Of a stretch of 64,000 nt of DNA, positions 3,449 through 62,700 are shown piece after piece. Below the pieces are notes generated by a model that saw nothing but the letters and a program-made list of their open reading frames with translations, searched no databases and was not told where the DNA came from. Each line of letters opens with the position of its first letter. Within the stretch, counting starts at the first letter, position 1. The translations under genes and the position numbers were made by a program. Source of the stretch: Mytilus galloprovincialis (Eukaryota); NCBI RefSeq assembly GCF_965363235.1, contig NC_134847.1, positions 69,974,935 to 70,038,934 of the forward strand. Reading direction: 5' to 3'.

Positions 3449-3683
3449 GATGAAGTGATTCAGGCTGATGGACCATCAATACTGGAATTGGTTTCTGATG
3501 AAGATGTAGATACTTTGCAGTATTTAGGATGGGAAGGGGAAGAGGAACATCTTTACAGTGAATGTTTTGGCGCAGAAATGGTAGATTGTTACGATGTACT
3601 TGGCGCAGAAATGGTAGATTGTTACGATATACTTGGCGCAGACATGGAAGAAGCCGCTCCTATGCCTTACTTTCTTTCATGTG
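3449..3683 (+). CDS. Candidate acidic exon containing a 30-bp in-frame tandem repeat (GAEMVDCYDV/ILGA x3); unknown gene
   Basis: Possible AG acceptor at 3447-3448. Open frame DEVIQADGPSILELVSDEDVDTLQYLGWEGEEEHLY...AAPMPYFLSC runs to a GGTAAGT donor at 3683/3684. The ORF-track start at 3440 is TTG, not ATG. No recognisable family. Confidence 0.2.
3565..3655. repeat. 30-bp tandem repeat, 3 copies (ggcgcagaaatggtagattgttacgatgtactt)
   Basis: Direct reading; near-identical consecutive units. Confidence 0.85.
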
Positions 3684-6374: not shown

Positions 6375-6532
6375 AAATAATGGATCAAATTAATAAGGTT
6401 GAGTCAACACATGTGGATTTAACAGCTGAAGAGAGAAACTTGTTGTCAGATGTATTTAGAAGAGAAATCTTAACTAAAAGAACAATTTTGAGAAATAATG
6501 GCCGTAATGAACACAAAGAAAACAAGGGAAAG
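6375..6532 (+). CDS. 14-3-3 protein-like internal exon (helix 3 region with the EERNLLS motif)
   Basis: Acceptor ttttcag at 6373-6374. Translation ..IMDQINKVESTHVDLTAEERNLLSDVFRREILTKRTILRNNGRNEHKENKGK, where the NEERNLLS core is a 14-3-3 signature. Donor GTATAG at 6533. The ATG at 6380 is internal; N-terminal exon(s) were not found. Confidence 0.55.
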
Positions 6533-10043: not shown

Positions 10044-10144
10044 ATGGATCTTAAGAATATTTGCCATAGTATTTTAGACATTTTAGATAACAAACTAATT
10101 CCTTATGCAGCAAGTGAAGAATCCAAAGTTTTCTACTATAAAAT
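10044..10144 (+). CDS. 14-3-3 protein-like exon
   Basis: Acceptor tttgtag at 10042-10043. [33 protein letters not shown] matches 14-3-3 ICNDVLELLDKYLIP...SKVFYLKMKGDY. Donor AT|GTAAGT at 10145. The split codon AT+G gives the conserved KM-KGEYY junction. Confidence 0.65.
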
Positions 10145-10520: not shown

Positions 10521-10879
10521 GAAAGGAGAATATTACCAATACTTAGCAGACTATTACCAATTCTTAAATGAAACTGTCACAGGAAATGATAAAAATGAAG
10601 CCACAGAAATTTTTTTAGCTGCATATAACATTGCAAGTGATACAGCATCTGCAGGTCTAGCACCTACTCATCCTGTATGTCTAGATTTAGCACTTAGTTT
10701 GTCTGCATTATATCACGATGTTCTCAACTCCCCAGATAAAGCATGTAGTATAGCAAAATCAGCATTTGATCAGGCAATATCAGAGCTAGATTGTTTAAGT
10801 GAAGAGAGCTATAAAGATTCAGCTGTAAAAATGCAGTTGTTAAGAGATAATTTAACACTGTGGACTGCTGAAGGTGAAG
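10521..10879 (+). CDS. 14-3-3 protein-like exon (C-terminal half, helices 6-9)
   Basis: Acceptor ttccag at 10519-10520. (M)[120 protein letters not shown] aligns along its length with canonical 14-3-3 ([24 protein letters not shown]). Donor G|GTAAGT at 10880. The C-terminal tail exon was not located. Confidence 0.8.
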
Positions 10880-12060: not shown

Positions 12061-12215
12061 CAATCAATCAATCTTTGAAACTATTAAGTTTATGCAATAC
12101 ATGTTTGCATAAAATACTTTCATCATAATATTCAATTGTTATCACTTTAAGCTTTGGCTAGATATTACAGCATGTGCACTCTTGTTAATATCTGATTTTA
12201 GATCTTGAAACTGAT

Positions 12216-12579
12216 ATGTCACCAGAACAAAAGGGTTATGCCAGGTTTATTGATTCAGACGAAGATGCTAATGAATTATTTAGCTTTAAAATTTCTTCAT
12301 ATGCATCATGTGAGGATTTTGAGGAAGATGAAATTCTTGAAGAAGCTACGAGTATGATTTCTGAAGAAGGCCAATATAAGTCAAGCTCTGATGAAGATGT
12401 GCAGATAATGCCATTAGTATTAGATGCTGGATCACTCATGATGAAGGCAGGATTTGCTGGAGATGATCATCCTAGAGCTAATTTCCCAACAGCTGTAGGT
12501 AGACCTAGACATCAAGGGGTAATGGTTGGAATGGGACAGAAGGATGCATATGTTGGATTTGAAGCCTGTGGAAAACCAG
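12216..12579 (+). CDS. First coding exon: acidic N-terminal extension fused to an actin N-terminal fragment (actin residues about 8-62)
   Basis: Genuine ATG at 12216 with an upstream in-frame stop. ...[54 protein letters not shown] is near-identical to conventional actin ([50 protein letters not shown]). Donor G|GTATAA at 12580, phase 1. Confidence 0.6.
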
Positions 12580-12639
12580 GTATAAAACTTTCTGTTTAAC
12601 CATAACGGTTTGATACTGTGTTGATCATAAGGAAATGGG

Positions 12640-12960
12640 TCTACTTTATCACTAGCTAGTCAACACTGAGGTATTAAGTTCAAACCCTGCATTAAACAGG
12701 TGCACAGGACTCTAATAATCTTAATTGACTAGAATTGACAGTTTTCCTAATAATCTTAATTGACTAGAATTGACAGTTTTCCTAATAATCTTAATTGACT
12801 AGAATTGACAGTTTTCCTAATAATCTTAATTGACTAGAATTGACAGTTTTCCTAATAATCTTAGTTGACTAGAATTGACAGTTTTCCTATCTAAGGTCGT
12901 GGTTCTCTTTTGGCACTCAGGCTTCCTTCACCAACAAAACTGACCACCGCAAAATAGCAC
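12640..12960 (+). repeat. SINE-like repeat copy 2, carrying an internal 31-bp minisatellite (12718-12875, about 5 copies of taataatcttaattgactagaattgacagttttcc)
   Basis: See 11870-12060; the tandem units were read directly. Confidence 0.45.
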
Positions 12961-13500
12961 AGAAGTGTTTAAAGTAACTTTAACACCAAAAGAGAAGAGG
13001 GATAAAAAGATGATAAGGAAATAATATTTTGAAATAATACCATAAACAATATATTTTTCTTATTATCTATCCTGTGATGAAAGTCACTTAATATAATACA
13101 TATGAAAATATGGAGATGTGATTTGATTGCCAATATGCAAAGAGACAACTATTATCTATTAAAGTTCAATAAAGGCAAAAGTATGTCCTGCACAAATGAG
13201 AAAAACACCTCATTTTCATGGTTTACTATTTAAAGGTTTTGAACGATTCTACAGTGCACATGCATATTCATGTGGCATGGTTCTTCTTGACTGCATTTAC
13301 ATAGATCATTGATAATGTAAAGTTTCTGTGATACTTGTAGTTAAACCTTTATCTTAAAAACTTCCAATATAAAATCAATCAATGAAGTAGGATAAACCCT
13401 CTTAAGCATAATTGATTGAGATGTGTACCAAATGTCTTTTATGATTCAGTTTGTTGAATTTAGCTTCTCTCTTTATGATATAATTGTTTTTGTCTTTCAG

Positions 13501-13548
13501 CTAAAGGAAAAGAGCTCGAAAAGAAAGAAGTAAAGCAGAGAGGTGCAG
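13501..13548 (+). CDS. Candidate 48-nt micro-exon (AKGKELEKKEVKQRGAG) linking the actin-like exon to the proline-rich exon
   Basis: Acceptor tctttcag at 13499-13500 and donor G|GTAATT at 13549. Only one of three frames is open, and it is the frame demanded by the phase-1 end of exon 12216-12579. It also hands phase 1 to the exon at 17762. Confidence 0.3.
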
Positions 13549-14571
13549 GTAATTGTATTTCTGATTTTTAAAAAAACAACTTCACAATTGTACTTCATCA
13601 TTTAGCTGCTGATTCTGTTGTAGCACTAAGCCACCGACACTTTTCATCTGAACCAAATAGACATTTAAACTTTGGTCAATACTCAAATAAGCAAATAATT
13701 TCTAAAACCTAAAGAAAATTTTAAATGTCTCAGATTTTTGCAGCGTACGTTTGCCTTCTCTATAACAAAATCCCCTATTTCCCTTATTTCACAAACTTAT
13801 TACAAATGGTTCTTTTGCCTTGTATAATACTGCAATAAAGATAATTCACTCACAATATTGAATAAAGATGTCATTATACTTCCAAAGAAAAACTATCTAA
13901 ACACAAATAAATTTTTCCTAAAATTCCATACCTTTAAAGATGAAGATGTGGTTTGATTGCCAATGAGACATCCAAATGATACGAAAATTAACAGTTATAG
14001 GTCACTTTACAACCTTCAACAATGAGCAAAGCCCTTACCACATATAGTCAGCTATAAGAGGCTCCAATATCACAAATGTAAAAGAATTCAAACGAGAAAA
14101 CTAACCGCATGATTAATGTACAAAAAAAAGACTGAAGAGCAAGTATGTAACATAGCAACAAAAGACAACCTCTAAATTACAGGCTATTAACTAGGGACAG
14201 GCACATAAATACAGAATGTTGTAGGGCTAAACATTATAGCTGGCTGCCTGATTTATGAAAAATTTCCCTTGAGGAATGTTGACATTCGATTTAAAATCCT
14301 CCATAACATTATCTAAATATCTAAATAAAAAAAAGCCATCCAAAGGGGTTGGAAATATATTTAAGCACTTAATTATACTCATTCAAATCCTTAATAAGGG
14401 GTCTGACATGAAAATATAAAACAATTCAAATGAGAAAACTAACAGATTAAATTAAAAACAAAACAATTTAAGAAAAAAATAATTAAAGATATGAACTAAT
14501 AACCACTGAACAACAGGCAACCTGACTTTGAACTGGCACATAAAGAATGTGATAGGGTCAACATGTTTGTT

Positions 14572-14955
14572 AGTGCTTAACTCTCACACTAGTCTTAGAC
14601 AGTGGTGTTTAACTCTCACACTAATCTTAGACAGTGGTGTTTAAGTCTCACACTAGTCTTAGACAGTGGTGTTTAAGTCTCACACTAGTCTTAGACAGTG
14701 GTGTTTAACTCTCACACTAGTCTTAGACAGTGGTGTTTAACTCTCACACTAGTCTTAGACAGTGGTGTTTAACTCTCACACTAGTCTTAGACAGTGGTGT
14801 TTAAGTCTCACACTAGTCTTAGACAGTGGTGTTTAAGTCTCACACTAGTCTTAGACAGTGGTGTTTAACTCTCACACTAGTCTTAGACAGTGGTGTTTAA
14901 CTCTCACACTAGTCTTAGACAGTGGTGTTTAACTCTCACACTATTCTTACACATT
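14572..14955. repeat. Minisatellite: 30-bp unit (ttaa[c/g]tctcacactagtcttagacagtggtgt) x about 13, near-perfect
   Basis: Direct reading. No unique spacers between units, so not CRISPR. Confidence 0.9.
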
Positions 14956-15439
14956 GGACTAAACCGTTAAAATTAGTTGCAATTGGTTTAAGTCAAAAGA
15001 TCAGTAATAGTCATGAAAACAACTAAAGTGCTAAAAAAACAGGCAAAAAAAACCCAGAGATAAGAGAATTTGCAGTTAATATATTTTGTGCTGTTGTCAT
15101 CCTTTTGTTGAACATTTTCATATTTGCCTGGCAAGTCATAAATGTTGGCATAAATGATGAACAGCAGTTCACAATTAGACTTGACAAAACAAGTGGGATC
15201 TCTATACTATTACAATAAAAAATTTTAGAATGAGGAAGGGAAAAAAATTTATGTTTAATTTGAAAAGAACCTCAACCTGAGTGACAAATAACTCATTGGT
15301 GGACAAAAGTTATCTGATAAAAAAAAACACACACTTTGATATGAAACTTTCTACAAGAACAATTTTATAAGAAAAAAAAACATAAAACTCTCATAATAAG
15401 ATGGCACTAATTATAAACTCATGTAATACAACAGATTTA

Positions 15440-15495
15440 TTTTTATACGACCGCAAAATTTGAAAAATTTTTCGTCGTATATTGCTATCACGTTG

Positions 15496-15533
<38 letters not shown>

Positions 15534-17435
15534 CGAATACTTTTAGTTTTCGCACTCTAACTTTAGTAAAAGTGAATGGAAATCTATGAAATTTTAACAC
15601 AAGGTTTATGACCACAAAAGGAAGGTTGGTATTGATTTTGGGAGTTTTGGTCCCAACATTTTAGGAATTAGGGGCCAAAAAGGGCCCAAATAAGCATTTT
15701 CTTGGTTTTCGCACTATAACTTTAGTTTAAGTTAATAGAAATCTATGAAATTTTGACACAAGGTTTATGACCACAAAAGAACGGTTGGGATTGATTTTGG
15801 GAGTTTTGGTCTCAACAGTTTAGGAATTAGGGGCCAAAAAAGGGCCCAAATAAGCATTATTCTTGGTTTTCGCACAATAACTTTAGTTTAAGTAAATAGA
15901 AATCAATGAAATTTAAACACAATGTTAATGACTACAAAAGGAAGGTTGGTATTGATTTTGGGAGTTTAGGTCCCAACAGTTTAGGAATTAGGGGCCAAAA
16001 AGGGACCCAAATAAGCATTTTTCTTGGTTTTCGCACCATAACATTAGTACAAGTAAATAGAAATCTATGAAATTTAAACACAAGGTTTATGACCATAAAA
16101 GGAAGGTTGGTATTGATTTTGGGAGTTTTGGTCCCAACAGAATAAGGGGCCCAAAGGGTCCAAAATTAAACTTTGTTTGATTTCATCAAAATTGAATAAT
16201 TGGGGTTCTTTGATATGCCGAATCTAACTGTCATGACTGTGTATGTAGATTCTTAACTTTTGGTCCCGTTTTCAAATTGGTCTACATTAAGGTCCAAAGG
16301 GTCCAAAATTAAACTTAGTTTGATTTTGACAAAAAATGAATCAGTTAGGTTCTTTGATATGCTGAATCTAAAAAATGTACTTAGATTCTTGATTATTGGC
16401 CCAGTTTTCAAGTTGGTCCAAATCGGGGTCCAAAATTAAACTTTGTTTGATTTCATCAAAAATTGAATAAATGTAGTTCTTTGATATACCAAATCTAACT
16501 GTGTATGTAGATTCTTCATTTTTGGTCCTGTTTTCAAATTGGTCTACACTAAAGTCCAAAGGGTCCAAAATTAAACTTAGTCTGATTTTAACAAAAATTG
16601 AAATCTTGGGGTTCTTTGATATGCTGAATCCAAAAATGTATTTAGATTTTTTATTATGGGCCCAGTTTTCAAGTTGGTCCAAATCAGGATCTAAAATTAT
16701 TATATTAAGTATTGTGCAATAGCAAGTCTTTTCAATTGCACAGTATTGCGCAATGGCAAGAAATATCTAATTGCACAATATTGTGAAATAGCAAATTTTT
16801 TTTTAATTAGAGTTATCTTTCTTTGTCCAGAATAGTAAGCAAGAAATATCTAATTGCAAAATATTGTGCAATAGCAAGATTTTTTTTTAATTGGAGTTAT
16901 CTTTCTTTGTCCAGAATCAACTTAAATCTTTGTTATATACAATATACAATGTATATTCACTTTTTACTACCAACTGATAAATTAAAATAATCTTTACCAT
17001 TCAGTGATAACAAGCAGTTTTTTTACATCTTAATATTTTATGATGTATTTAAATGAGTAGTTATTGTTGCAAACTCCATTAGAAATTTTAATTGAGATTA
17101 GTTTTGGAATAAGGGAAAGGGGGATGTGATTAAAAAAATTGGGTTCAATTTTTCTCATTTGAAATTTCATAAATAAAAAAGAAAATTTCTTCAAACATTT
17201 TTTTGAGAGGATTAATATTCCAACAGCATAGTGAATTGCTCTAAGAGAAAACAAAAATTTTAAGTTCATTAGAACACATTCATTCTGTGTCAGAAACCTA
17301 TGCTGTGTCAACTATTTAATCACAATCCAAATTTAGAGCTGAATCCAGCTTGAATGTTGTGTCCATACTTGCCCCAACCGTTCAGGGTTCAACCTCTGCG
17401 GTCGTATAAAGCTGCGCCCTGCGGAGCATCTGGTT
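15440..17435. mobile_element. About 2-kb composite non-autonomous element, copy A
   Basis: Starts tttttatacgaccgc and ends ...gcggtcgtataaagctgcgccctgcggagcatctggtt. It contains (GTC)12 at 15495-15533, about 4 copies of a roughly 180-bp subrepeat, about 2.5 copies of a roughly 250-bp subrepeat (ggtccaaaattaaact...) and attgcacaatagcaag repeats. It is over 97% identical to 25977-27961. No ORF with any recognisable domain. Confidence 0.7.
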
Positions 17436-17761
17436 GACTTTGTTAAATGAACTAAGGATTAGCATCCAGTGGCAAATATTTCATGCAAATGCATTATGAA
17501 AACAGATAAACATTACTAGTACAATAAAATCCCCGAGTCCATGGCTGATAAATTATAATTAAGCCCTCTGCTATTCCTGTGTTTGCTAGTGAGGTCAGAA
17601 TTATATATTCATGCAAATGTGTAACCTACATATAATATTTATTCATATACTCATATTTATTGAATACACTAGAAAAGGTTGAAGATTATAATTTTTTTAG
17701 AAATATTAAGATACAATATTGAATGAAAAAATAGTTGATTTACAATTTTTGCATTTTGTAG

Positions 17762-18801
17762 ATACTTTGATGAAATATAGCAGGTCTTTAACCTTATCTT
17801 CAGATGAAGATACAATAGAATCTAGTGTACCTGACAAACATCAAGCATTAAAAAAACTATCTTATTCACCAAAAATGTTACCCCTAGTTCAGAAAAAAAA
17901 AATGTCAGAAGAACAACAACTATCAGACATGTTTTCTTTTGGTTCATTAATAAAAATACCACCAACCCAACCAGATGCATCACCACAATTTCAAACCCAA
18001 ATGCGTACTCCCAAACTATTCAGAGGAATGCCACCTTCACAACCACCAAGAGGAATGCATGTTGTTGGCTCTTCATCAGTAAAGTCAGATCCTCCATCGA
18101 TACAAATGTACTCTCCAATGTCTGCTGCACTAGCATTTCCAGAAGCAATATGTGATGAACTGTTGCCACAACAGGTTGGTCCACAGTTTGGAATACCCCC
18201 TCCTCCACCCCCTCTAGCATCATCAAGAGGGATACCACCACCCCCACCGCCTCTTCCATCAAGAGGAATGCCACCTCCAGCATCCCTACAATCAAGAGGA
18301 ATGCCAGTTAAAATTAAATGCTCAGCATCAGGAATGCCACCACTGCATCAACAGGGAAAACCACAACCACCTTTGCAGTCATCAAAACAAATGGACTCTT
18401 TAGTGTCTGGTGCACCACCACCTTCACTACTAAAAGAATTGAATCGTATGCTACCGGAACCAAGGTATGGTCCTCCAAAAGGAATACCACCACCGCCACC
18501 ACCACCAACAGGATTGCCGATTCCAAAAACACCATTTGGTCCTAGGGAAATGGCAAAGAGTAGTTCTTCTCATCTAAAACAAAATCAAGTATTTTCATCA
18601 ACATCACCAAGAGCACAATTACTTTCAGACATTTCAGATGGATCTTCAGCTAAAAAAATGAGTGGTTTAACTGCTCGTGGAGGATCAGCTCGTGTTTTGG
18701 GGAGTATAACAAAACCACTATCAATAATTGAGAAGGATATACCTAGCCAATTAGATTCTGCTGATAGCGTTCAAAAACAAAGTAATACTGAAGAATTAAT
18801 G
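17762..18801 (+). CDS. Large exon encoding a proline-rich (formin FH1-like G[IM]PPPPPP x4) region plus a WH2 actin-binding motif (RAQLLSDISDGSSAKK, WIP/verprolin-type)
   Basis: Acceptor ttttgtag at 17760-17761. About 1.04 kb open frame ..TLMKYSRSLTLSSDEDT...FGIPPPPPPLASSRGIPPPPPPLPSRGMPPP...GIPPPPPPPTGLP...SPRAQLLSDISDGSSAKKMSGLTARGG...NTEELM. Donor ATG|GTAAGT at 18802. The entry phase matches the upstream exons. The ORF-track start at 17719 is TTG. Confidence 0.65.
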
Positions 18802-19550
18802 GTAAGTAAAAAGATACCTGTACTTATAATATGAATGTCAAATGAATGATTAATTTGAACCAATTATAGATAATGACAAATGAAAAAGTTAGTTTAATTT
18901 GAACCAATTTTAGATAATATCAAACAAATAGTTCCGATTTTGAAAACTTAGTTTAAAAGTGTTGTTTTTACGATTTGCAAAATCTCATTTCCACCATCAG
19001 ATATATATGATATTATGATTCCTTGGGTTGCGAGTGTTTTCTATTTTAAAAGGAAATCTAAACTTCTTGTTCTTTTTCACATCGATTTATGTAATAGCAA
19101 AGAACAACTACTATCCTATATATGTCAGCATTTATATACTTGGCAAACGACTGTTCAGTCAACTTTGAATCCCTGCCATTGTTGTGATATGCTGAATAGA
19201 TTTGAACTGGTAGATGCGAAGCAGTCAGCTGTGAACAATAAAAACTCTTGTTAAAACTTATTTCAGTCACATTGTTTAACATGGAGCAAAAGCTCTCACC
19301 TCACTGCAAGTTTAAGACCTTAATAGCACTGGTTTATTGGAAATTCTTTGCAAACTAAATTAATGATTATGCCACAACTGTAAAAGAACAAAGCCATTCA
19401 GTAATATCAATAAAATAAATCACAGGCACATAGATCGAGATATATATGTTATATAACTTGGCAGGCAATGCTATATGTATAGGGCAAAAAATTAGATACA
19501 CTTTGTTAGATGAAAAACCTCATTTTTAAAATGATTTCTTAATTTTCTAG

Positions 19551-19609
19551 GTTGATTCCCATGCTTCATTATTTGATAATCTAAGGTCTAGAAAGTTTAA
19601 AAAGAGGAT
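19551..19609 (+). CDS. Candidate small exon (VDSHASLFDNLRSRKFKKR), amphipathic/basic, possibly a WASP 'C' (connector)-like helix
   Basis: Acceptor ttttctag at 19549-19550 and donor AT|GTAAGT at 19610. Only frame 0 is open, matching the phase-0 end of the previous exon. Confidence 0.3.
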
Positions 19610-21039
19610 GTAAGTATAAGGAAATACTGTGGATTCATTATTACATTTGTATTATGTGTTGGATACCACTTTTCATGGGCTTTGTGGGTAAAGGTGAAAC
19701 TGACAAATTTAAATATTCAACCAATGAGAAAGTTTATATGTATAGGATTGTATACAGACATTGACAAAACCATGAAACCAAATATCCACTGAAATGCAAG
19801 TTTTCTCAATCCACGAAAATTAGTACCCACAAAAAATTAATGTCATTTTATTTTGGTTAACAAGCATTTTTCTAGTTTTTAGACATTAACTTGTGTTCAA
19901 GTGTATGGATTTCTCTGAAATTGTACTGCAATGTACCATACCTTAAAGGGAAAGCTGGGATTGAGTTTGATAATTACTAAAAGGGAATTGAATAAAATTT
20001 GGGTAGGAACTTTTTTTCATATTTTTTTTTTTCTCTTCAAAATTTTCCATTTTGCAATTTATAGATAAAAGCAAAATAATACTGATATGGCAGGAGATAC
20101 ACCAAACATGATTTGTAAACTATATATGAAGTATTGTGCAATAGCATAGTATTGCACAATAGCAAAGTATTGCGCAATAGCAAGAACTCTTCAATTGCAC
20201 AGTATTGCACAATAGCAAGAAATCTTCAATTGCACAGTATGGGGCAAAAGCAAGTAATATCCAATTGCATAGTATTGCACAATAGCCCAATAGTGTGCAA
20301 TAACCTGAAATCTTCAATTGCAAATGGTATTGTGTAATGGCAAGAAATATTCAATTGAAAGTTAATACAAATATTTCAAGATCTTTCCCCACATTTATTT
20401 TGTGTCTCAGTATCAAGCTTGAGTATTGTGTCCAAACTGTTCAGGGTTCAATTTCTGCTGTCGTATCAAGCTGAGCTCGGTAAAGCAATTGATCCCATCT
20501 GTTTGCAAAGGCTTTAAATCTTTTGTAGGGGTTAAAACTGAGTTCAAATCAATGAATGTCAGCATATTAGAGGATTGAGGGACTAATGACTTATCCTAGG
20601 GTTTGATTGCTGTTTTGAAATTTATAATTGCAGTTCACATAATTTAAGAAAAACATTCACAATGATTTCAAAAAAAATGTCAGACCAGCTGAAATAAAAT
20701 TTGGAATCCCTTTAGGATGACAATTAATTATCAGTTATCAAAAAGAAAAAAAGTAGACATTTCTGGATTAAAAATATGTGTGGAATGATTGTAATTGAAA
20801 CAAATATGAAAAAAAGTTTACTTACTTTAAATGTTGATAATGTTTCATTTAAAACCATAACAAGCCCCTTATATATCCCTTTCAAACTTGAAAAGAGGAC
20901 TTCTACAACTGCTGCTTTGAAAAAAAAGTTTTTTTTATCATAGAAGTCAACATTGTTGATGTTCTAGTCAGAATGGCAGGATCAAAGCGCTATGTATGGC
21001 AAGCTGTTTTTATATTTAATCAATTTAAAGATATCTTGT

Positions 21040-21245
21040 AAAGTTAATAAGATATCTTATAAAGTATACAAGATATCTTATTTAATTTATAAGATATCTT
21101 ATTTATTCTATAAGATATCTTATATCTTTTCAAAGATATCTTTTAAACAAATAATTTATAAGATATCTTGTATAGTTTATGAGATATCTTTAAAAGTAAA
21201 TAAGATATCTTATTTTCTTTATAAGATATCTTATTTTTTCAAACT
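21040..21245. repeat. Array of a roughly 21-bp unit with a palindromic core AAGATATCTT (contains GATATC), about 10 copies
   Basis: Direct reading: ataagatatcttat + about 9-nt AT spacer, repeated. Same family at 21730-21850 and 22960-23275. Confidence 0.8.
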
Positions 21246-21729
21246 ATTTGAAATATGACATATTATTAATTTTATTTTAAAACAGTTACCTTATATAAAA
21301 TCTGTTGACTTTGATGCAAGTAATAATCAAGGAGAGATTGTGATGAAAAAAAAAACCATCGAAATATAATAGAAGTAAGCTAACAAAATAGTTTTTGTCA
21401 CATTTGGATAGAATAAAAGAGAGGTATGTTAACCATGGTTATAAAAAATGTAGATGACCATGCCAGCACAAGTGACTGGTTCAAAGAATGTGAAAATTCC
21501 TGTAATTTTTGTATCATATCCATTTGTGGACTAAGTCTCATTCTTGTCACTATTTCTGACTGACGAATTATGAAAGGGAGAGCATTTTGAGTTTATCAAC
21601 CCCCCCCCAAAAAAATGGAACTTAATAAAATATTTCAATTCTTTATAATAGTTTCGTAAATTCTTATTTCTAGATAAACAGAAAACAAATTGAAATGAGA
21701 TTGGTTATACATATTTTGAGTGAGACTTA

Positions 21730-21850
21730 TTTTATTTTAAATAGAATATCTTTAATAGTAATTAAGAAATCTTATATATTAAATAAGATATCTCTATTAT
21801 TAAATAACATATCTCTATTATTAAATAAGATATCTTATATATATTTGATA
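21730..21850. repeat. Degenerate block of the AAGATATCTT-core minisatellite
   Basis: aagaaatcttat, aagatatctctat, aagatatcttat copies. Confidence 0.6.
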
Positions 21851-22959
21851 TAATAAATAAGAATCTATCAAACAATAAACAATTACAAGTAAGAATTCTA
21901 ACAAACTAAATGTGATAAGTTTTTATGTTTATTTGATTTTATTTTTTTAAAGCAGAATTACCTAGAAAAAAGGACAAAAGAAATATCCTTGTTTTTATTG
22001 GGATTTTCGTTCTGGTAGTAAACTGTTATTTTCATATCTTTGCAATTTTTCCTGCTTGAAGCACATTAAATAAATTTCATTCATTTTGATAGGAAGCAAG
22101 GAATTGCCCTTTTCTCTTTCATTTATCGTGAAATAATCATTTACAATGAAACAGTGGATATGCATGTATCCCCCCTTTACCCATTTTTAGTAATTTGTAT
22201 GTTAACAAAATAGATAGAGGAAAATGTGGTAATTTACAATGAGACAACTCTCCATTCAAGTAAAAAATTATAAAAGTAAACCATTAAAGGTCAAGGTACA
22301 GCCTTCAATCCGAAGCTTTGGCTCACACTGAACAACAAGCTATAATTTTAGGGCTCCAAAAATTTATAGCTATAATAATATAGTGTAAAACAATTCAAAG
22401 GGGGAAACCAACGGCCTTATCTGTATATACCATGCACTTCCATTTAATACAGCAGAGAATAAATGTTTGCCAATAGAATTTAATAAAATTTGATAACAAA
22501 AATGGAGAAAACAAGCATTTATATATAGCTTTTATAAGTGCACAGTAATTATTTTGACATTATGCTGATGATCAGGGTTTGAATCTCAACAGGTATCATT
22601 AGTTGTAATCAAATCAAATACTGATGTTAACCAATTATAAATTTTTGGTGCATGCGAATTTAAATCAAAGATAGTTGTCTCTTTTTATTGTGAAATTATA
22701 TATGATCATATATCAATGTACATAACGGTGGCAAAACAGAAGTCAATTTTATTATTAATATATTACTGCTGGTGGGTGGTGAAGGACACTTAATATTTTA
22801 TTCTCCTCCTTTGGAGGTGTGCCTACACTGGCAGAATCTAACACAGATACAGATATGAATTAGCAACCTTGATCTGAATTGCTTTTGATTTTTTGATTGG
22901 TCAAACTTTTTTCCAACATACAGGGATACTTTATTTTAATTCGTAAAAAGAAAAGAAGA

Positions 22960-23275
22960 TATATTATTTAGTTAATAAGATATCTTATTTAGTTTTAAAG
23001 ATATCTTATTAAGTTTATAAGATATCTTTATAAGAAACTATATAAAAGATATCTTATATAGTTTATAAGATATTTTATAAACTTAATGAGATATCTTTTA
23101 AACTAAATAAGATATCTTATATGTTAAATAAGATATCTTGATAACAAGTTTTAATAAGATATCTTATTTATTTATCAAGATATCTCTATTAATTTATAAG
23201 ATATCTATTAATTTATAAGATATCTTATTTAATTATAAAGATATCTGATTTAACTTTCTACGATATCTTGAAAGT
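22960..23275. repeat. Array of the AAGATATCTT-core unit, about 17 copies
   Basis: Direct reading; unit phase about 19-21 bp, the same orientation of the unit+spacer as block 21040-21245. Confidence 0.8.
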
Positions 23276-23438
23276 GAATAAATATAAAAATGGCTTGCCA
23301 TAGCTATTCTGATTAGATCATATTTTAGATATTAAAACTTTATCAAAAGCCTTATTATGATTTAGATGATATACATTCTGATTGTGTAACAGTTTTATTA
23401 CAAAATAATAAATAAATCTTGATATCATATATTTGTAG

Positions 23439-23543
23439 GGGTAAGGCAAATGTCACAGACTATGCAGATAACCGATGGCATGTTGATGAAGATGATGAAG
23501 ATGATGAAGATGGTGATGATGATAACAGAGGAATGATGACTAA
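23439..23543 (+). CDS. Candidate exon encoding a W + poly-acidic stretch (NRWHVDEDDEDDEDGDDD), WASP-family 'A' region-like
   Basis: Acceptor atttgtag at 23437-23438 and donor AAG|GTAAAA at 23544. The split codon AT|G from exon 19551-19609 gives M-GKANVTDYADNRWHVDEDDEDDEDGDDDNRGMMTK in an open frame. Confidence 0.4.
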
Positions 23544-24047
23544 GGTAAAAAATAACAGGCTTAATAAAAAATAAATACTAATTAAGAAAGGTTAGAACTC
23601 AGATAATTAAATGAACAGTTTGTTTATGTGTTACATATTTGTTTTTCGTTCATTTTTTTATATAAATAAGGCCGTTAGTTTTCTCGTTTGAATTGTTATA
23701 CATTAGTTATTTCTATGCCTTTTATAGCTGACTATGCAGTATTGGTTTTGCTCATTGTTGAATGTGATACAGTGACCCACAGTTTTTATGACATTTGGTC
23801 TCTAATGGACAGTCATCTCATTTCAATTATAATACATCTTTTTATGTTCATATATAAACATAAATTCCAATGAGACATTTCAACATGTGTGCTTTTGTAT
23901 TTAAATATGCACACAAACTCAACCAGGTTTAGCTTATGTATCTCTGTATGTTAGTCATTTGATAGGAATGGAAAATATTCATGAAAGAAGATTGATATTA
24001 GATTAGATTAGATTAGATTATTAATGAGTTTTATAATATATAATCAG

Positions 24048-24206
24048 TTGGTGACAAGTGATGTTCATGGAATGAAAGTCAAGCTTTCAACAGAATCAGC
24101 AAAGCCAAGAGGATTTCTTTGCAAAATAGGAAGCGCAGTTAGCCCACGTCGAAGAGCAGCAATAGAGGCTAAAGATAGAGATTCATATGGGATAGATGTG
24201 AAAAAG
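24048..24206 (+). CDS. Candidate exon (LVTSDVHGMKVKLSTESAKPRGFLCKIGSAVSPRRRAAIEAKDRDSYGIDVKK), unknown domain; same or a neighbouring gene
   Basis: Acceptor aatcag at 24046-24047 and donor AAG|GTAATA at 24207; phase 0 to 0; 53 open codons. Confidence 0.3.
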
Positions 24207-30505: not shown

Positions 30506-31579
30506 ACTACCTATGAGGCAGGGGAGGCAACTGCCTCTCCTGAATTTTCTACACCATTTTTTTTTAAGTAATAAAATGAAATATTGACAATATGTACACG
30601 AATAACTTGAATTTGTATTATAAACAATACAAGTTTACAGTTTTAACAGTGTTATCATGATACGTGATATATGTCATTTTCCAGATTTTTGATCGATAGT
30701 GGCCGTCCGTCTGTTATTCAGTATTTGTAAGAGAACACATATGAAACTTTGCTTTCGACAATTTTGAATAAAACTTAACTGTTCACATGTATTGAGGGGC
30801 TCAATTAAGCGGAGGAGGTTCCCTTTGTATTATGAATCTTTAATGATACCAGAAATTCGTTACCGACTGAATCAGCTGTTGGATCATTTATTTTAACGTC
30901 TCCAGATCGTACGAGAACATTGTGGTCAATGCCTTAGTAGTTAGTAGTTAAACACTCCCATTCGTTGTAGCAGTGACTTTCTATACTAAGTATATACTAG
31001 TATAGAAAGTCCCTGGTTGTAGTTATATACATGTCTGTTCAGCTGTCAACAATATTGAAATTCAAGGTCCTCGATAAAAAAAAAATATCTTCCGTTCTAT
31101 GATCTTGCTTTTTTAACTTACCAGTTTGATTTCTAACTAAAATATCTTTAAATACAGATAATAATTGTTTGCATAAAAATTGCTTCCAGGATCCAGCAAT
31201 ACTGATGTTTCTTAAAGTAAGGAAATCGAAGGAAAACAGGTCATTTTTAGCCACTGATTCTATTGAGAAAACAATCCGCTGTCACAAGGTATTTAATGTT
31301 AATAATTATAGGTCAAAGTACGGCCTTCAAGACGGAGCCTGGGCTCACCCCGAACAACACTCTCAGCAATCTCAGCTTGTTTTTGCATAAAATTTGCTTC
31401 CAGGTTCAAGCAATCCTTAAAGTAAGGAAATCAAAGGAAAAAGGGTGATTTTTAGGCATTTTACTGAGAGAAAAAAAAAAATGGCGGGGGCTGCGCCCCA
31501 ACCCCCTTCTCTTGGGGGCATCAGTCGGCTACCCACAAACCCCTGCCTCCCCTGAATTGGAACCCTAGTTACGGCCCTG
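30506..31579. mobile_element. 1.07-kb non-autonomous DNA transposon-like element with 14-bp TIR CAGGGCCGTAACTA, nested inside repeat copy 2
   Basis: The left end cagggccgtaactacc and the right end ..ctagttacggccctg are reverse complements. It contains an internal roughly 150-bp tandem duplicate (gcataaaa(a/t)ttgcttccagg..taaagtaaggaaatc(g/a)aaggaaaa). The corresponding site in copy 1 (about 5290) is empty. The TSD is unclear because the flank is a CT run. Confidence 0.65.
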
Positions 31580-37200: not shown

Positions 37201-37439
37201 TTAATGTAGGTGTCATCAAGATCAGAAACAGTTGGGCAACAAGGTATAGATAGTATGTTCAAGATTTGTGTACAGTTTACATATGTTTTAGATGTTTACA
37301 ATGTTTATAATATAGTAACTGCATTTCCCACATTTATGTCAAATACTGTAGATTGATTATTATTGGTGCTGTGACCCTTTGAGAGAGTACCTGAATTAAT
37401 ACGTAGTTTTGATTCAAAGAGGGTTAGAGCTATATGTTA

Positions 37440-38326: not shown

Positions 38327-38439
38327 GTCCTTCAACTGATTTGGCTGATTATGGAATCGGTTCAACTATAAAACCAGTGAAGACAGGAGGAACAGTAGAT
38401 AAATATAGTATAAATAAAATATTTGCTATTCAAGAAGAG
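38327..38439 (+). CDS. Internal exon of a + strand gene (..GPSTDLADYGIGSTIKPVKTGGTVDKYSINKIFAIQEE)
   Basis: Acceptor ttatag at 38325-38326 and donor GAG|GTAGGT at 38440; single open frame. Confidence 0.4.
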
Positions 38440-38838: not shown

Positions 38839-38938
38839 GATGGTAGTTGGAAGTTTTCTCAACAGTTATGTACCTTACTTGGTATAGAATATGATGCTTG
38901 TATGAAAATACTTAAAGAGGCAGGGATAAAATCATTAG
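38839..38938 (+). CDS. Internal exon (DGSWKFSQQLCTLLGIEYDACMKILKEAGIKSL)
   Basis: Acceptor tttccag at 38837-38838, phase 0, matching the previous exon. Donor G|GTAAC at 38939. The QEE-DGSWKxSxxLxxLLGI pattern resembles the C-terminal regions of VWA5A/PARP4-type proteins, a weak call from memory. Confidence 0.4.
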
Positions 38939-57057: not shown

Positions 57058-57757
57058 AGTGAGGAACAACCGGACGTGGAGGAAGGTGGACGTGTTTTCT
57101 GAGCTGACCTATTCTGTCGCCTACACTTACCCGCACCCACTTAGTAGTTGATTGTGTCATTACTCAAACACTAGTGCAAGTATTTGACAATTTATTGTCA
57201 TTTAATAGCGGTTTTAGCAGAAAATTCATTGCGAGTGAAGGACAGGTAACATAGCGTCACCCAGCGCCATCTTGAAAAAATTTCAAAACTTTCAAAGCAA
57301 AGGTGTTAAGTCTATACTTCACCTGAAATTAGTCTCTCCTTTCCCGGGAAACACAAGAACAATGTGTTGCTGATGTTTACTGAATTTTTAATTAACTTTT
57401 AACGAACTTTTAGTGTCCATTATTTTATCCAAATCGAGTAGTTTGAAAATGATCAGTATTCTTGTGTAGTTTCACAGTCTGTGTACTCGTTCTCATTCTT
57501 CATTTTACCTTTTATCGCTTGATAAATTTTTTAGATTTTATTGTATGTAGTAAGGTTTTTCATTTTACCTTTTAAAACACTTGAATTAAATTTTAAGCCA
57601 GTACTTTTAAGTTTGTGTTACTATAAAGTGTTTTATAATCAGTTTTTAATTTTTAAACTGTCCTTGATGTAGCACATGTTAGCAGATAAGTTATTTTTGC
57701 TCAAAATATTTTTGTGTAAATCTATTACCACACTCATTAAATTCTTTGTTTGGTAAA

Positions 57758-59770
57758 ATGGAAATTGCCAGAAGAAGAAGTGACCGAGTTAAAGGCAAGA
57801 AAGTAATGTTTACTCCCTGTAAAACTGTATCTAATACTGCAACAAAAAACAAGAAGTCTAATAGTAATAGTAGTATTAATGAAAAAACTGTTGATTATGA
57901 ATTAAATAAAAGAAAGGCTGTTAGCAAGAAGCTTGATGCTGCCGAACGGTTGTATACAGTAAAAACTGAAATAAGTCCAGGTAATCTGGTCCTTATCTTC
58001 TCTGCTGCTGCTTATGAAGAATTCAAAGTTATAACACAGTCAGTTGTAAACAACACTGGTCTGCAGATAAATAAGACTGAGACTAAGGATAAATTAGGTG
58101 CCATTGTATCTGAATCACTGGCGATCCATAATGGAAGCACAAAATTATTTGTTTTGAACTTTTTTAATACCACAACAAAAGTCCTTTTGAATGGCAACCA
58201 ATCATATATAAAGGAATTTATAACCACTGCTCTCGGGGACATATTGTGTATTCTTGACCGTAACTCCAAATTTAGTCTTATAAACAATCAAATCAGAGAA
58301 TATTGTAAAATGTTTTTAGATAACACGCAACAAAGTAATCTGGACACAGCAAGTAAAGATGAGCAAGGGGTACAAATTTTAAGTAAGAAGTCAATGGTTA
58401 GTTCTAAACAACAGACAGTGGGGACCTGTTCTAATATTAAGTCAAAAACTATTCAAAGTGACATCTTATGTCCAACATGTAAGAAAGTCTGTGGAAATGA
58501 CTCAAAGGCAGTAGAGTGTGACATATGTAATGTATGGGTCCATTATAGCTGTGAAAAACTTGGTCTAAGTGACATTCATGTAATTGAAAATGACTTAACA
58601 GCAGAGTATATCTGTATAAGCTGCAAACAGTTGAGAGCCTTGCAGGCTGATTGTGTAGCAGGAGGGTCTATCTCTGATAATAGTAATGACTCAAATAAGG
58701 GGGAAGAAATGCCAAGATCGTCCCTCTCAAGTGCTGATATTAACCCCATGGCTCGGGGGTCGGTTGTTTCTGGTGTTACTATAATACATAAAGACAATAG
58801 ACTGTTTTCTAATAATAATTCCACAAATGATGAGGATATAAATAAGGACAATTCAAGAAGTGATAGCTCCTATAGTTCCGTACAAATGGGTTCAAACATT
58901 TTAAAAGAAGAAATAATCTCTCTAAAATTAGAAATTACTCATAAAGATAAAGGAATCAAGCAAAAGGACAGTCAAATTTATAAGTTACAAACAGAAGTGT
59001 CCACTCAGAAAAAAGAGCTTGCAGCAAGTAGAGCGTATGCTATAAAACTGGAAAATGACATTAGGGATTTAGAACACTCTTTGTTAATTCAAAAACAAAA
59101 ACAAAGTTCAAGCGTGAATGCGGACTTTAACAGGCAAAGTCCTTTTAGTGATAATAGTAATAAATCCGAATCAGAAAACTTAAAAAGTTGGTTTTTTGAA
59201 CAGAGGATGAGGCAAATGGAATTGGAAATTTGTAAACAAGATAATAAAATAAGTAATCTAAGTGATAAACTGTTGGACTTGAGATTTGACAACAATAATC
59301 AATCAACACGGTCTCGACAAAGGCAAAATAGAGGGAGGCAAAATAATGCTAATAAGTACAGTAGAAACGAAAGGTCTCAATTTGATAGACATAGTGAAAA
59401 CAAGCACTGTAAATTTCAGAATGATTTTGCAGATTTTAGTGGGGGTATGTCATTTCGGCACGATGAATCCCAACCCAATAGTCTTCACATTGATAATAGT
59501 GGTAGTGAAAATGAGACCAATTCTGTGGTTAATGGTCAAACAAACAATAGTGATAATTTTTTAGGGAATATTCATTCCAGGGGGAAATCAAAATGTCAAA
59601 CACAAGCAAGGAAAAGATTTCACGAGAAATCGGAGCAAATATATATACCCCCAAGAAAGCAAATGAAACAAGTACCGCCGAGGTTCCAACGTCTTCAACA
59701 GGAAAAGTTGGGTTGCACACAGAGAGACAATTTAATGATGCCCACATTGGGTCAATCCACAAAAATGTAG
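57758..59770 (+). CDS. LINE ORF1: PHD-type zinc finger (CPTCKKVCGNDSKAVECDICNVWVHYSCEKL...CISC) plus coiled-coil protein
   Basis: First ATG at 57758 (the ORF-track start at 57746 is TTG). Cys/His spacing typical of a PHD finger. Heptad-rich LKLEITHKDKGIKQKDSQIYKLQTEVSTQKKELAASRAYAIKLENDIRDLEH. Confidence 0.7.
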   Translation: MEIARRRSDRVKGKKVMFTPCKTVSNTATKNKKSNSNSSINEKTVDYELNKRKAVSKKLDAAERLYTVKTEISPGNLVLIFSAAAYEEFKVITQSVVNNTGLQINKTETKDKLGAIVSESLAIHNGSTKLFVLNFFNTTTKVLLNGNQSYIKEFITTALGDILCILDRNSKFSLINNQIREYCKMFLDNTQQSNLDTASKDEQGVQILSKKSMVSSKQQTVGTCSNIKSKTIQSDILCPTCKKVCGNDSKAVECDICNVWVHYSCEKLGLSDIHVIENDLTAEYICISCKQLRALQADCVAGGSISDNSNDSNKGEEMPRSSLSSADINPMARGSVVSGVTIIHKDNRLFSNNNSTNDEDINKDNSRSDSSYSSVQMGSNILKEEIISLKLEITHKDKGIKQKDSQIYKLQTEVSTQKKELAASRAYAIKLENDIRDLEHSLLIQKQKQSSSVNADFNRQSPFSDNSNKSESENLKSWFFEQRMRQMELEICKQDNKISNLSDKLLDLRFDNNNQSTRSRQRQNRGRQNNANKYSRNERSQFDRHSENKHCKFQNDFADFSGGMSFRHDESQPNSLHIDNSGSENETNSVVNGQTNNSDNFLGNIHSRGKSKCQTQARKRFHEKSEQIYIPPRKQMKQVPPRFQRLQQEKLGCTQRDNLMMPTLGQSTKM

Positions 59771-62700
59771 GAAAGGATATACATGTACAAGAGCCTCATG
59801 ATAATGAAATAAGTATAGATAGCGTGCTGAACATTTTATCTTTTAACATTGAAGGTTTTTTATCTAATAATATGTATCTATCTATGCTAGAGAAAAGAGC
59901 TGATATAATTATGTTACAGGAACATTGGTTACATAATAGGGAAAAACAAGTTTTAGAGGAATTTTTAACTGACTTTTTATGTCTTGTAAAATGCTTTGAT
60001 GATGATAAGACAAATGACCCAACTGAAAGGAGGAGGGGGCATGCTGGGGTTGCAATTTGTGTTAACAAAAAATTACAAAATCTTGTTGAACTTTTACCGG
60101 ATGGATGTAATAGAGTAATAGCTATACGTCTCAACGTAAAACAGCCACTTGTGCTAATATGTGTCTATATGCCAACTAGAGGTGGAAATATCACTATTGA
60201 AGATTTTAAAACTGTACTAGATGAGCTAAGTGAAATGATAGAAAAATATCTGCCTACTTCTGACATAATTATAGGAGGTGACATGAATGCCTCACTGCAT
60301 AGAAATGAGCGTAAAATACCTCGTGACATTGTCTTTGATGAATTCTTAAAATCTAATGGTCTGTCAATACCTTCCACTTGCAAAACGCAGAGTACGTTTT
60401 TTCACTTCAATAACAGAGATGAATCTCAAATTGACTATTTTGTAGAAACTAGTGCAATGGTCAAGAAATATTTGTCATTTAATCGTGAATTTCAAAATCT
60501 ATCCATTCATGATCCAATTATGATTTCAATTAACTGTTGTATTGAAAGGATGGATATTAGCACTAGCGATCCTAGACCTTTACGTATAAAATGGGATAAA
60601 ATTGATAAACAAAAATATGAAAATTTACTTCAAGAGAGATTAACTGAATTTAGTGATGTGGCTGTGGTTGAAACTGCTGAAAATATAGAGAACATTTTAA
60701 CAAAATTTTCTGACATTATTGTGACTACTGCTGAAAGTCTATGCCCAAAAAGGAAAAAGAAATTTAAGAGGAAAAGGGACTGGACCCCAGAAATGACTGA
60801 AATTGTTAAGGAGGGTAAATTTTACTATTGGAAATGGAAAAATGAAGGTAATAAAGATAATAAATCTAGCATTAACTATATTCGAATGAAAGTGCAAAAG
60901 AAAAAACTTCGTTCTGCCCAAAGACGATTGGCTGCTGAGAAAAGAGAAAATACGTATACCAAAATTATGGAATTAAATGAGAATAATGATAAACAATTTT
61001 TCGCATTAGTAAATAAGCAGAGAAATGCAAGGTCATCCACAACTTCAATTTTGAAGGTTAACAATAGACTGTATAATAATTCAGCCTCTATTCTGGGAGC
61101 TTGGGCTGAATACTTTGAAGATTTGGCCTCGCCATCTGTGCAAGATAGATTCGATAGTAAATTTTTCAATTTGGTTAATAATGACATTGAAATATTAACT
61201 GATATTTTCTTAAGTACAAGAGAACCGATTCAGGAAGTGACTGAGTACGAATTGAATAAATGTATTTTATCTTTTAAAAATGGAAAAGCTCCAGATGTTG
61301 ATAAATTCACCATAGAACACTTGAAATATGGAGGACAGACAGTTGTAAATATACTAACTAAATTGATAAACTTGATTTTTAAAACTGTTGCTGTCCCAAA
61401 TAATTTAAAAATAGGGATAGGATGCCCTCTGTTTAAAAATGGAGGAAAACCAAAAGAAGATCCAAATTCATATAGACGTATAACTATAACTAGTGCTATT
61501 GGAAAAACTATAGAAAAGCTACATTTATCCCGTAACAAAAGCTCTATTAAAAATCAGCAAAGTAGATTACAAAAAGGGTTCACTGAAGGGGAATCCCCTA
61601 CTGTAGCGGGGCTGGTTGTAACTGAACTAAGAATAGAAGCTAAAGAAAAACGTTTACCCATATATATTGGATTAACTGATGCTAAAAAAGCGTTTGATAT
61701 AGTATGGCATGCTGGCCTATTTAGAGAAATGCATAAAATGAACATATCTGGAGATAATTGGTTATTATTTAGGGCATGGTATGAAGACTTAACTACAAAA
61801 GTAAAATGGGAAGGAAATTATTCACGTGGGTTTAAAGAAAAACAAGGCGTCCGTCAAGGAGGTGTTTGGTCTCCAACTGCGTATAAAGTTTTTATTAACT
61901 CTTTACTGAAAATTTATGAGGAAAACAAAATTGGGTCGTACATAGGTTCAATATACTGTGGTGCTCCAACTGTAGCAGACGATGTTACATTGATAGCTAA
62001 TGATCCATATGAACTACAAACTATGATTAATATTCAAATGGACCATGCAAATAAATTTAGATATTCGATTAGTGAACAGAAATCCTGTGTATTGAAAATA
62101 GGAGACAAGTCAGAACATTCCTGGTATATGAACGACCAAAAGTTAAATACACCAATTAATGCTACCCACTTAGGAATAAAAAGGGACATAAATTCTAAAT
62201 TTGGAGTTAAAGAAGTTGTACCAGATAGAATACAAACTGCTCGTAAAACAGTATATGCATTGATGGGCGCTGGTCTCTATGGCCTGAATGGGATAAATCC
62301 GAAGGTCTCAGTTCACATGATAAAGTGCTTTGTCATTCCGAGGCTACTGTATGGCCTGGATATTATTCGATTAACAAAAACTGATATAGCAAAACTATCT
62401 GTTTATTATATACAATTGTTGAAACAAATCCAGCATCTGCCGTCACGCACTGCGAATTCTGCTGTTTTAGTCCTGACTGGTCAGCTTCCTATAGAATCTG
62501 AAATCCACAAAAAAATGCTTTCCCTATTTCGTAACATTGCAGATAATCACGGGTCAGTTGAACGCAGTATCGCTCAAAGACAGCTTGCTTTGAAAACAAG
62601 AGACTCTGAAAGCTGGTTTATTCAAATTATAAAATTAACAGAAATGTATGAATTGCCATCTCCTATAGAGGTACTGGATCTAGTCCCAGAAAAGCATATT

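Follow-up and report, generated by a model that had tools for sequence, protein, structure and literature searches.

A stretch of 64,000 nucleotides from the mussel Mytilus galloprovincialis (contig NC_134847.1, positions 69,974,935 to 70,038,934 of the forward strand), referred to here as the window, carries between positions 12216 and 24206 a series of exons in which an actin-like fragment is followed by a proline-rich region, a WH2-like motif and an acidic segment. An exact match to RefSeq places this segment within the 3′ third of the M. galloprovincialis gene for PARP4, the vault poly/mono-ADP-ribosyltransferase, as the middle portion of that third; its exons encode the tether that connects the vWA domain of the protein to its vault anchor. 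A sequence-only reading had proposed a stand-alone, lineage-specific actin regulator, or an actin pseudogene fragment captured as a 5′ exon; the exons turn out to be an internal and 3′ part of PARP4. The gene is already annotated and extra ‘actin’ and ‘14-3-3’ domains on PARP4-like proteins were noted in 2014, so that to this extent the finding is known.

The PARP4 gene of the mussel

An exhaustive phmmer search with the product of exons 3–6 of the series, covering 1.84 billion representatives, returned exactly one match, CAG2205451.1 (‘PARP2_3_4 [Mytilus edulis]’, 1730 amino acids, E 7e-83). In this protein the product of the open reading frame (ORF) at 3431–3796 of the window, the residues DLETD, the actin fragment, the micro-exon peptide and the large exon follow one another in that order. 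The DLETD residues are encoded upstream of the ATG at 12216, at which the sequence-only reading had started a 5′ exon: this ATG is internal, and the true start of the exon is 12202, directly behind the AG acceptor at 12200–12201. The M. edulis PARP4 locus is collinear with the window from 3.4 to 28.3 kb at 88–98% identity. Exact look-ups of the unspliced ORFs 17770–18831 and 12216–12596 found nothing.

The RefSeq proteins of the M. galloprovincialis locus are XP_076077942.1 (‘PARP4-like isoform X2’) and XP_076077939.1 (isoform X1). Alignment of the former to the window by tblastn gave several exons at 100% identity and others at 92–97%, the latter in alignments that overrun the exon borders. 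Enumeration of AG/GT sites left one unique splice solution, in which 10 exons of the window reproduce residues 1253–2036 exactly, and splicing of exon 3449–3683 to position 12202 supplies residues 1174–1252. The six exons drawn previously are all real: they have AG/GT borders and compatible phases, and are translated exactly in RefSeq together with four further exons. The starts of the small exons at 19551 and 23439 had been placed correctly; their ends are now fixed at 19609 and 23544, and the last exon of the six at 24048–24206.

Pfam detects BRCT, PARP catalytic, VIT, vWA and Actin domains on XP_076077942.1. The first four, in the order characteristic of PARP4, are encoded upstream of the window, whose exons give residues 1174–2036. 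The architecture of the full protein is thus BRCT, PARP catalytic, VIT, vWA, a tether of ∼800 amino acids and a C-terminal domain for interaction with the major vault protein (MVP). By inspection, the Mytilus PARP4 motifs ..LLFHAS.., ..GVYFAS.. and ..DDEYVIY.. sit at the positions of the PARP1 H-Y-E motifs, which form the catalytic triad of active PARPs. The last 188 amino acids encoded in the window align to residues 1575–1637 of human PARP4 (PDB 11jf/9bw6, E 9e-5), part of the C-terminal region with which the human protein binds MVP, and family PF26156 (PARP4_MVP-ID) is precomputed both on the Mytilus proteins and on a downstream gene model of M. edulis; the assignment of the MVP-interaction domain is made because of these two matches. 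The stretch with a tryptophan (W) and an acidic run, previously taken for a tail, is therefore internal: ∼240 residues follow the tryptophan, and the protein continues to the MVP-interaction, or vault-binding, region at 37.2–39.9 kb. Mussel gill contains abundant major vault protein, according to a study (PMC5302490) whose scope lay outside mussel PARP4 itself.

A constrained actin fragment in a variable tether

Counted from the ATG at 12216, the actin exon specifies an acidic leader of 63 amino acids and then actin residues 5–64; the actin-like part occupies 12405–12579 of the plus strand, where the exon itself supplies actin residues ∼5–62. The earlier recognition of an actin N-terminus in the open frame 12216–12579 is borne out: human beta-actin aligns over residues 5–64 with 75% identity (tblastn, E 3e-22), and the Pfam Actin family (PF00022) scores 40 bits. 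Only positions 4–61 of the 410 of the profile are matched, and the complete fold of ∼375 amino acids is absent. The likeness does not end at the donor (CCAG/GTATAA), as had been stated; it runs two codons beyond in the unspliced frame (KPGI versus KRGI). The P-loop DNGSG of actin reads DAGSL, and the nucleotide-binding loop is altered. A piece of 60 residues cannot fold as actin, polymerise or bind nucleotide. Searching the 64-kb window with human beta-actin (tblastn) found no other actin-like pieces. An actin-related protein interrupted by a giant insert was considered and ruled out, as there are no further actin-like exons in the window.

The full-protein search yielded at least 218 PARP4 homologues, and counts given here and below are among the 120 listed. 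The actin fragment was found by blastp with beta-actin in 35 of these 120, distributed over five phyla (sponges, cnidarians, molluscs, hemichordates and echinoderms), and in all 35 carriers it lies C-terminal of the vWA domain. It spans actin residues ∼5–65, and in sponges and cnidarians reaches as far as ∼73. In a comparison of 33 distinct fragments, the identity with actin stands at 0.54 over residues 8–20 and 0.65 over residues 21–35, rises to 0.91 over residues 36–56, the D-loop, and falls to 0.48 over residues 57–65. Within the genus, the actin exons of M. galloprovincialis and M. edulis are separated by 0 substitutions in 378 nucleotides and one 3-nucleotide indel, where introns differ by 4–7%. 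In the pearl oyster genus Pinctada the actin fragment is fused seamlessly to a calmodulin fragment inside one ORF. On comparative grounds, the fragment is a strongly constrained island in a fast-evolving tether and an ancient feature of PARP4, reaching from sponges to bilaterians. As it occupies the same place in five phyla and is conserved in Mytilus, it is neither a recent capture nor a pseudo-exon, and the view that it is lineage-specific falls.

The remainder of the tether is mostly disordered and evolves quickly, through repeat expansions and indels of more than 100 amino acids among Mytilus species. Between M. galloprovincialis and M. trossulus the enzymatic body is 96% identical, the MVP-interaction domain 92% and the actin fragment 95%; the corresponding values are 62% for the acidic leader, 44% for the micro-exon and 12% for exon 24048–24206. 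The large exon, 17762–18801, shows 42–77% identity with insertions of 185 and 103 amino acids, and varies in repeat number and by indels among Mytilus species. Exon 19551–19609 is 100% identical in M. edulis and 89% identical in M. trossulus. In position the large exon is the counterpart of exon 30 of human PARP4, a large and disordered exon, and the DNA around its 374-codon stop-free ORF has a G+C content of ∼32%. Three of the four G(I/M)PPPPPP repeats reported in it are exact GIPPPPPP units (∼18190–18510), and the fourth is GMPPP.

In the M. edulis assembly GCA_905397895.1, a run of A in the large exon is one base longer (locus position ∼64490, equivalent to ∼18355 of the window), which converts GKPQPP to GKTTTT and splits PARP4 into CAG2205451.1 and a downstream model of 340 amino acids that carries the MVP-interaction domain. 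This frameshift is probably an assembly error, because the RefSeq M. edulis protein is intact. The same assembly shows similar indels of one base in its 14-3-3-like exon.

WASP-like and 14-3-3-like segments

The sequence-only reading had also seen in the tether a WH2 motif of WIP/verprolin type, followed by the C and A regions of a WASP-family nucleation-promoting factor (NPF). The mussel motif PRAQLLSDISDGSSAKKM, at 18607–18660 in the large exon, scores 13.3 bits against the Pfam WH2 cut-off of 23.1, matches profile positions 2–16 only and has AKKM where WH2 has LKKV, so that the leucine of LKKV is missing. The segment from the WH2-like motif to the acidic run found no WASP or WIP match in PDB at E≤10, and its only match there was a spurious one of the acidic tail to a yeast E2 enzyme. 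In other respects, too, the mussel V-C-A series falls short of the WASP family: M. edulis has RLQ in place of the tryptophan, in M. trossulus a deletion removes it, and the spacing between the V and C elements is ∼55 amino acids in M. galloprovincialis and more than 150 in M. trossulus, which has more than 100 extra residues. The acidic run of exon 23439–23544 is a 9-nucleotide tandem repeat, TGATGAAGA, present 4.4 times, and does not lie at the C-terminus. FH2 and EVH1/WH1 domains, for which a check of unassigned exons had been suggested, gave no Pfam match on the complete protein or on the conceptual product, and the FH1-FH2 arrangement of formins is absent from both.

The series of poly-proline, WH2-like, basic helical and acidic segments is canonical in sponge PARP4s, which lends the sequence-only reading of such a series comparative support; the mussel copy fails the family tests. 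A PVCA (proline-rich, V, C and A) module is present in the PARP4s of Dysidea, Halichondria, Oscarella, Ephydatia and Amphimedon, placed between the actin fragment and the vault anchor. It consists of poly-proline tracts, the motif GRGxLLSxIKKGxxLKKV, a helix ALxxALSxRR and an acidic run with a tryptophan. The Oscarella protein passes the Pfam WH2 threshold with 32.6 bits, and the Amphimedon segment matches the WH2 repeats of N-WASP (PDB 3m3n, E 4e-5). When a hidden Markov model (HMM) of the sponge-PARP4 WH2 was run on the 120 proteins, the mussel motif was the best non-sponge match (E 0.0017, 9.6 bits); with an HMM of the full sponge VCA the mussel region went undetected. These comparisons suggest that the mussel segment is a degenerate remnant of an ancestral PVCA-like module and not a working VCA. 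In Amphimedon and Ephydatia, the PARP4 tethers also carry copies of the C-terminal motif of ribosomal stalk P-proteins (EEEDENMGFSLFDD, SDDNMAFGLFD) beside the WH2-C module.

Three 14-3-3-like exons lie in the 8.5-kb intron upstream of the actin exon; they are designated here X1 to X3 (exon labels, distinct from the isoform names). Together they amount to 618 nucleotides, or 206 codons, and splice to each other in frame, the X2–X3 junction restoring the reading ..VFYYKM/... The acceptor of X1 is in phase 1, as is the donor at 3683, and X3 ends GAAG/GTAAGT in phase 1, as the acceptor at 12202 needs. The 14-3-3 profile (PF00244) is matched over positions 11–63 and 111–223 of 223, with residues ∼89–121 recovered by tblastn; the first two helices and residues ∼61–88 found no match in the exons of the window by Pfam or tblastn. 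Both RefSeq isoforms lack X1–X3, whose divergence from M. edulis resembles that of introns, and for these reasons they are best read as either a recent relic or a PARP4 cassette that is rarely used. Less likely is an independent 14-3-3 gene nested in the intron, as both flanking phases fit PARP4 and the order 14-3-3 then actin recurs in other phyla: it holds wherever both co-occur in the listed PARP4s, and is seen in sponge and hemichordate proteins.

Fragments of further host proteins populate other PARP4 tethers. They include the C-terminal half of 14-3-3 (residues ∼130–235), whole ubiquitin ending in RLRGG, calmodulin, CHMP4 residues 14–147, the VAMP2 SNARE motif and the HSP70 substrate-binding domain. 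A second Mytilus PARP4 paralog has calmodulin, CHMP4(14–147) and HSP70 substrate-binding-domain fragments, and bivalve paralogs differ in the contents of their tethers. Oysters combine actin and HSP70 fragments, and Crassostrea virginica has a VAMP SNARE fragment as well.

Features of the window, with positions counted from its first nucleotide
Feature	Position	Strand	Support
Exon, acidic spacer, residues 1174–1252	3449..3683	+	Donor TGTG/GTAAGT, phase 1; tblastn 100%; precedes actin exon in RefSeq
14-3-3-like cassette exon X1, 14-3-3 residues ∼19–75	6375..6532	+	Pfam 14-3-3, 23 bits; tblastn; splice sites
14-3-3-like cassette exon X2, 14-3-3 residues ∼89–121	10044..10144	+	tblastn, E 2e-6; AG/GT borders
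14-3-3-like cassette exon X3, 14-3-3 residues ∼122–231	10521..10879	+	Pfam 14-3-3, 121 bits, E 5e-35
Exon, acidic leader and actin N-terminal/D-loop fragment	12202..12579	+	Pfam; tblastn; exact RefSeq translation
48-nucleotide micro-exon AKGKELEKKEVKQRGA	13501..13548	+	Exact RefSeq translation; identical peptide in M. edulis CAG2205451.1
Largest exon, 346 amino acids, disordered, Pro-rich	17762..18801	+	Exact RefSeq translation; within 374-codon stop-free ORF
Small exon VDSHASLFDNLRSRKFKKR(M), basic amphipathic ‘C-like’ segment	19551..19609	+	Exact RefSeq translation
Small exon with ..DNRWHVDEDDEDDEDGDDD.., acidic run and Trp	23439..23544	+	Exact RefSeq translation
Exon LVTSDVHG...GIDVKK, poorly conserved tether segment	24048..24206	+	Exact RefSeq translation
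Optional exon of 33 amino acids, isoform X1 (XP_076077939.1) only	31190..31288	+	tblastn 31187–31291; borders inferred from ORF and AG/GT
Small exon VSSRSETVGQQ	37210..37243	+	Unique splice solution
Exon opening the C-terminal MVP-interaction (vault-anchoring) region	38327..38439	+	tblastn; splice solution
MVP-interaction domain exon (DGSWKFSQQLCTLLG..GIKSL)	38839..38938	+	Aligns to human PARP4 1575–1637, E 9e-5
Last coding exon, C-terminal part of MVP-interaction domain and stop codon	39619..39938	+	Splice solution; PDB match; PF26156
LINE-type retrotransposon, intact long ORFs	57683..63240	+	
LINE ORF1-like	57683..59767		PHD finger
LINE ORF2	59557..63240		Endonuclease (Exo_endo_phos) and reverse transcriptase (RVT_1)
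Tandem repeat, 35 bp × 5, near-perfect	12712..12889		
Tandem array, 32 bp × 12	14573..14957		

The optional exon of isoform X1 encodes the peptide DPAILMFLKVRKSKENRSFLATDSIEKTIRCHK, and a similar peptide, KICFQVQAILKVRKSKEKG, is encoded in another frame ∼160 bp further on, so that the exon could have arisen from a local repeat. The interval 13.5–17.7 kb, where a check for unassigned exons had been suggested, is made of tandem and dispersed repeats. The 35-bp repeat of the table begins 130 bp past the donor of the actin exon, and the 32-bp array lies at 14.6–15.0 kb. A composite dispersed repeat of ∼1.7 kb with 161-bp tandem units occurs in PARP4 introns at 15.4–17.3 kb and 26.0–27.7 kb and recurs in upstream introns of the M. 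edulis locus. The retrotransposon is of the long interspersed nuclear element (LINE) type.

Possible function of the tether and known systems

As a whole, the locus is very probably best explained by a PARP4 tether that contains an ancient, constrained actin island and a degenerate PVCA-like series and has a presumed role in mimicry. The MINT domain of PARP4 binds the inner vault wall (bioRxiv 10.64898/2026.05.01.722283). In the mussel, the MVP-interaction domain would pin the protein to this wall and the tether would join the enzyme to its anchor. The actin piece would most likely act as a linear or surface mimic of the actin N-terminus and D-loop, shown to actin-recognising factors, because 60 residues cannot fold as actin and conservation is concentrated on the D-loop. 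The same logic could extend to the 14-3-3, ubiquitin, calmodulin, VAMP, CHMP4, HSP70 and WASP-VCA fragments of other tethers.

In mammalian PARP4, positive selection is confined to the large disordered exon, which is under recurrent selection and has been proposed as a host–pathogen interface (Daugherty et al. 2014, PMC4038475). The function preferred here, tentatively, is that pathogen effectors may take the fragments as bait and that the signal would arise when the tether is bound or cleaved; the main alternative is recruitment of endogenous partners. The preference comes from the character of the fragments: they are incomplete, nearly identical to the proteins of origin, modular, and reshuffled among lineages and paralogs. 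Stated more broadly, it is possible, if doubtful, that the non-vertebrate PARP4 tether is an array of host hub-protein look-alikes serving as baits or protease tripwires, with the vault as an innate immune sensor. Such an array would display the actin N-terminus and D-loop, the C-terminal half of 14-3-3, ubiquitin with RLRGG, calmodulin, the VAMP SNARE motif, CHMP4, the HSP70 substrate-binding domain, the WASP VCA and the ribosomal P-protein tail. Binding or cutting of the tether between the ADP-ribosyltransferase and the vault anchor would then be the alarm signal, and the mussel actin exon would be one bait, whose identity to actin would persist because the pathogen's true target is not free to change.

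Several observations weigh against this account. The local Pfam scan, single downstream ORFs included, gave no match to the MVP-interaction family at the C-terminus. Exon usage is deduced from the exact fit to computational RefSeq and ENA models, from splice-site and phase logic and from conservation. The WH2-like, C-like and acidic segments of the mussel are statistically weak, the bait or mimic function is one that we purely infer, and outside factors may have little access to a tether enclosed in the vault lumen.

Other explanations start from the same exons. That they form a stand-alone gene for an actin regulator, from the ATG at 12216 to a W/acidic tail near 24.2 kb, is scarcely credible: the ORF does open with an in-frame ATG, and the exons that follow keep phase, but a consensus acceptor stands at 12200–12201, the coding sequence before the ATG (..DLETD) is common to the PARP4s of M. 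edulis and M. galloprovincialis, the exact RefSeq match spans exon 3449–3683 through 39938, and the actin fragment is embedded in the PARP4 of five phyla. It is very improbable, too, that the fragment is a recently captured pseudogene, or an intronic relic wrongly placed in gene models by homology. Gene predictors do use protein homology, the likeness to actin extends two codons past the donor, and the adjoining 14-3-3-like cassette is unannotated and evolves at an intron-like rate. Yet a pseudo-exon would have decayed, whereas this one holds its PARP4 place in five phyla with 91% identity in the D-loop, is in phase on both sides, and is free of substitutions relative to M. edulis amid introns that differ by 4–7%; the seamless calmodulin fusion of Pinctada points the same way.

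An endogenous cytoskeletal adaptor, in which the actin fragment, poly-proline and WH2-C-A segments would be working modules (for profilin, G-actin and Arp2/3) that link PARP4 and vaults to actin or make PARP4 an NPF, is conceivable without being likely. A link between PARPs and the cytoskeleton was proposed by Perina et al. 2014 (PMC4245714). The canonical poly-proline-WH2-C-acidic(W) module of sponge PARP4s, with the scores of Oscarella (32.6 bits) and Amphimedon (E 4e-5), argues for such an adaptor, as does the good conservation of mussel exon 4 (‘C-like’) in Mytilus. Against it stand the sub-threshold mussel WH2 without the LKKV leucine, the absence of the tryptophan from M. edulis and M. 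trossulus, the long and variable V–C spacing, and an actin piece of 60 residues that cannot polymerise or bind nucleotide. It also leaves the 14-3-3, ubiquitin, VAMP, CHMP4, HSP70 and calmodulin fragments unexplained.

The gene call itself is ordinary. What is noteworthy is that a 60-residue copy of the actin N-terminus and D-loop has been kept nearly unchanged in an otherwise hyper-variable PARP4 tether from sponges to molluscs. Should the fragments be baits for pathogen effectors or proteases, they would provide a concrete, testable model of vault function; should they recruit endogenous partners, they would define the clients of the vault. The searchable literature offers only a one-paragraph mention, from 2014, of ‘14-3-3’ and ‘actin’ domains. 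A literature search for PARP4 in connection with tripwires, integrated decoys or WH2 returned nothing relevant, and none of the papers found in what is an incomplete literature collection describes the array of fragments, a constraint centred on the D-loop or the VCA of sponges.

That mention, in the portion of Perina et al. 2014 (DNA Repair, PMC4245714) available, concerns PARP4-like proteins with VIT and vWA domains and a 14-3-3 domain, some with an actin domain C-terminal to it. The hosts are amoebae, Capsaspora, Salpingoeca, lancelet and sea urchin, with 14-3-3 and actin or actin-binding domains. The phenomenon appears to be the same, and the order 14-3-3 then actin fits the mussel locus. 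That portion lists domains; it does not mention the fragmentary nature of the pieces, the D-loop constraint, other host fragments, a WASP-type VCA or molluscs.

Vertebrate PARP4, or vPARP (human Q9UKK3; PDB 9bw6, 9bw7, 11jf), has BRCT, PARP catalytic, VIT and vWA domains in the same order as the mussel protein and, like it, a long disordered tether derived largely from one big exon and an MVP-interaction domain at the C-terminus. It is the tether that evolves fast, in mammals (Daugherty 2014, PMC4038475) and Mytilus alike. In contrast to the mussel tether, with its actin fragment and WH2-like motif, the tethers of the listed vertebrate PARP4s are without Pfam hits to Actin, 14-3-3, ubiquitin, EF-hand, VAMP, Snf7 or HSP70, and most list PF26166.

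With the VCA of the WASP family and the WH2 of WIP/verprolin the mussel tether shares a proline-rich tract, an LLSDIS-G helix, a basic amphipathic segment and an acidic run, and the sponge PARP4 versions are canonical and match the WH2 of N-WASP. The mussel differs from the WASP family in its AKKM in place of LKKV, its failure in Pfam, the lack of a conserved tryptophan, the long spacing and a position that is not C-terminal; the regulatory domains WH1, GBD and SHD were not found in mussel PARP4 by Pfam.

The integrated decoys of plant NLRs and the protease ‘tripwire’ linkers of NLRP1 and CARD8 provide a functional analogy only. PARP4 has no NLR or STAND domain and, unlike the decoys of NLRs, its actin module is ancient and stable, not lineage-specific. 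The likeness lies in conserved fragments of host proteins set in a rapidly evolving, modular region: in the tether of PARP4 such fragments have been gained, lost and shuffled between lineages and paralogs, in a protein suspected of an immune function.

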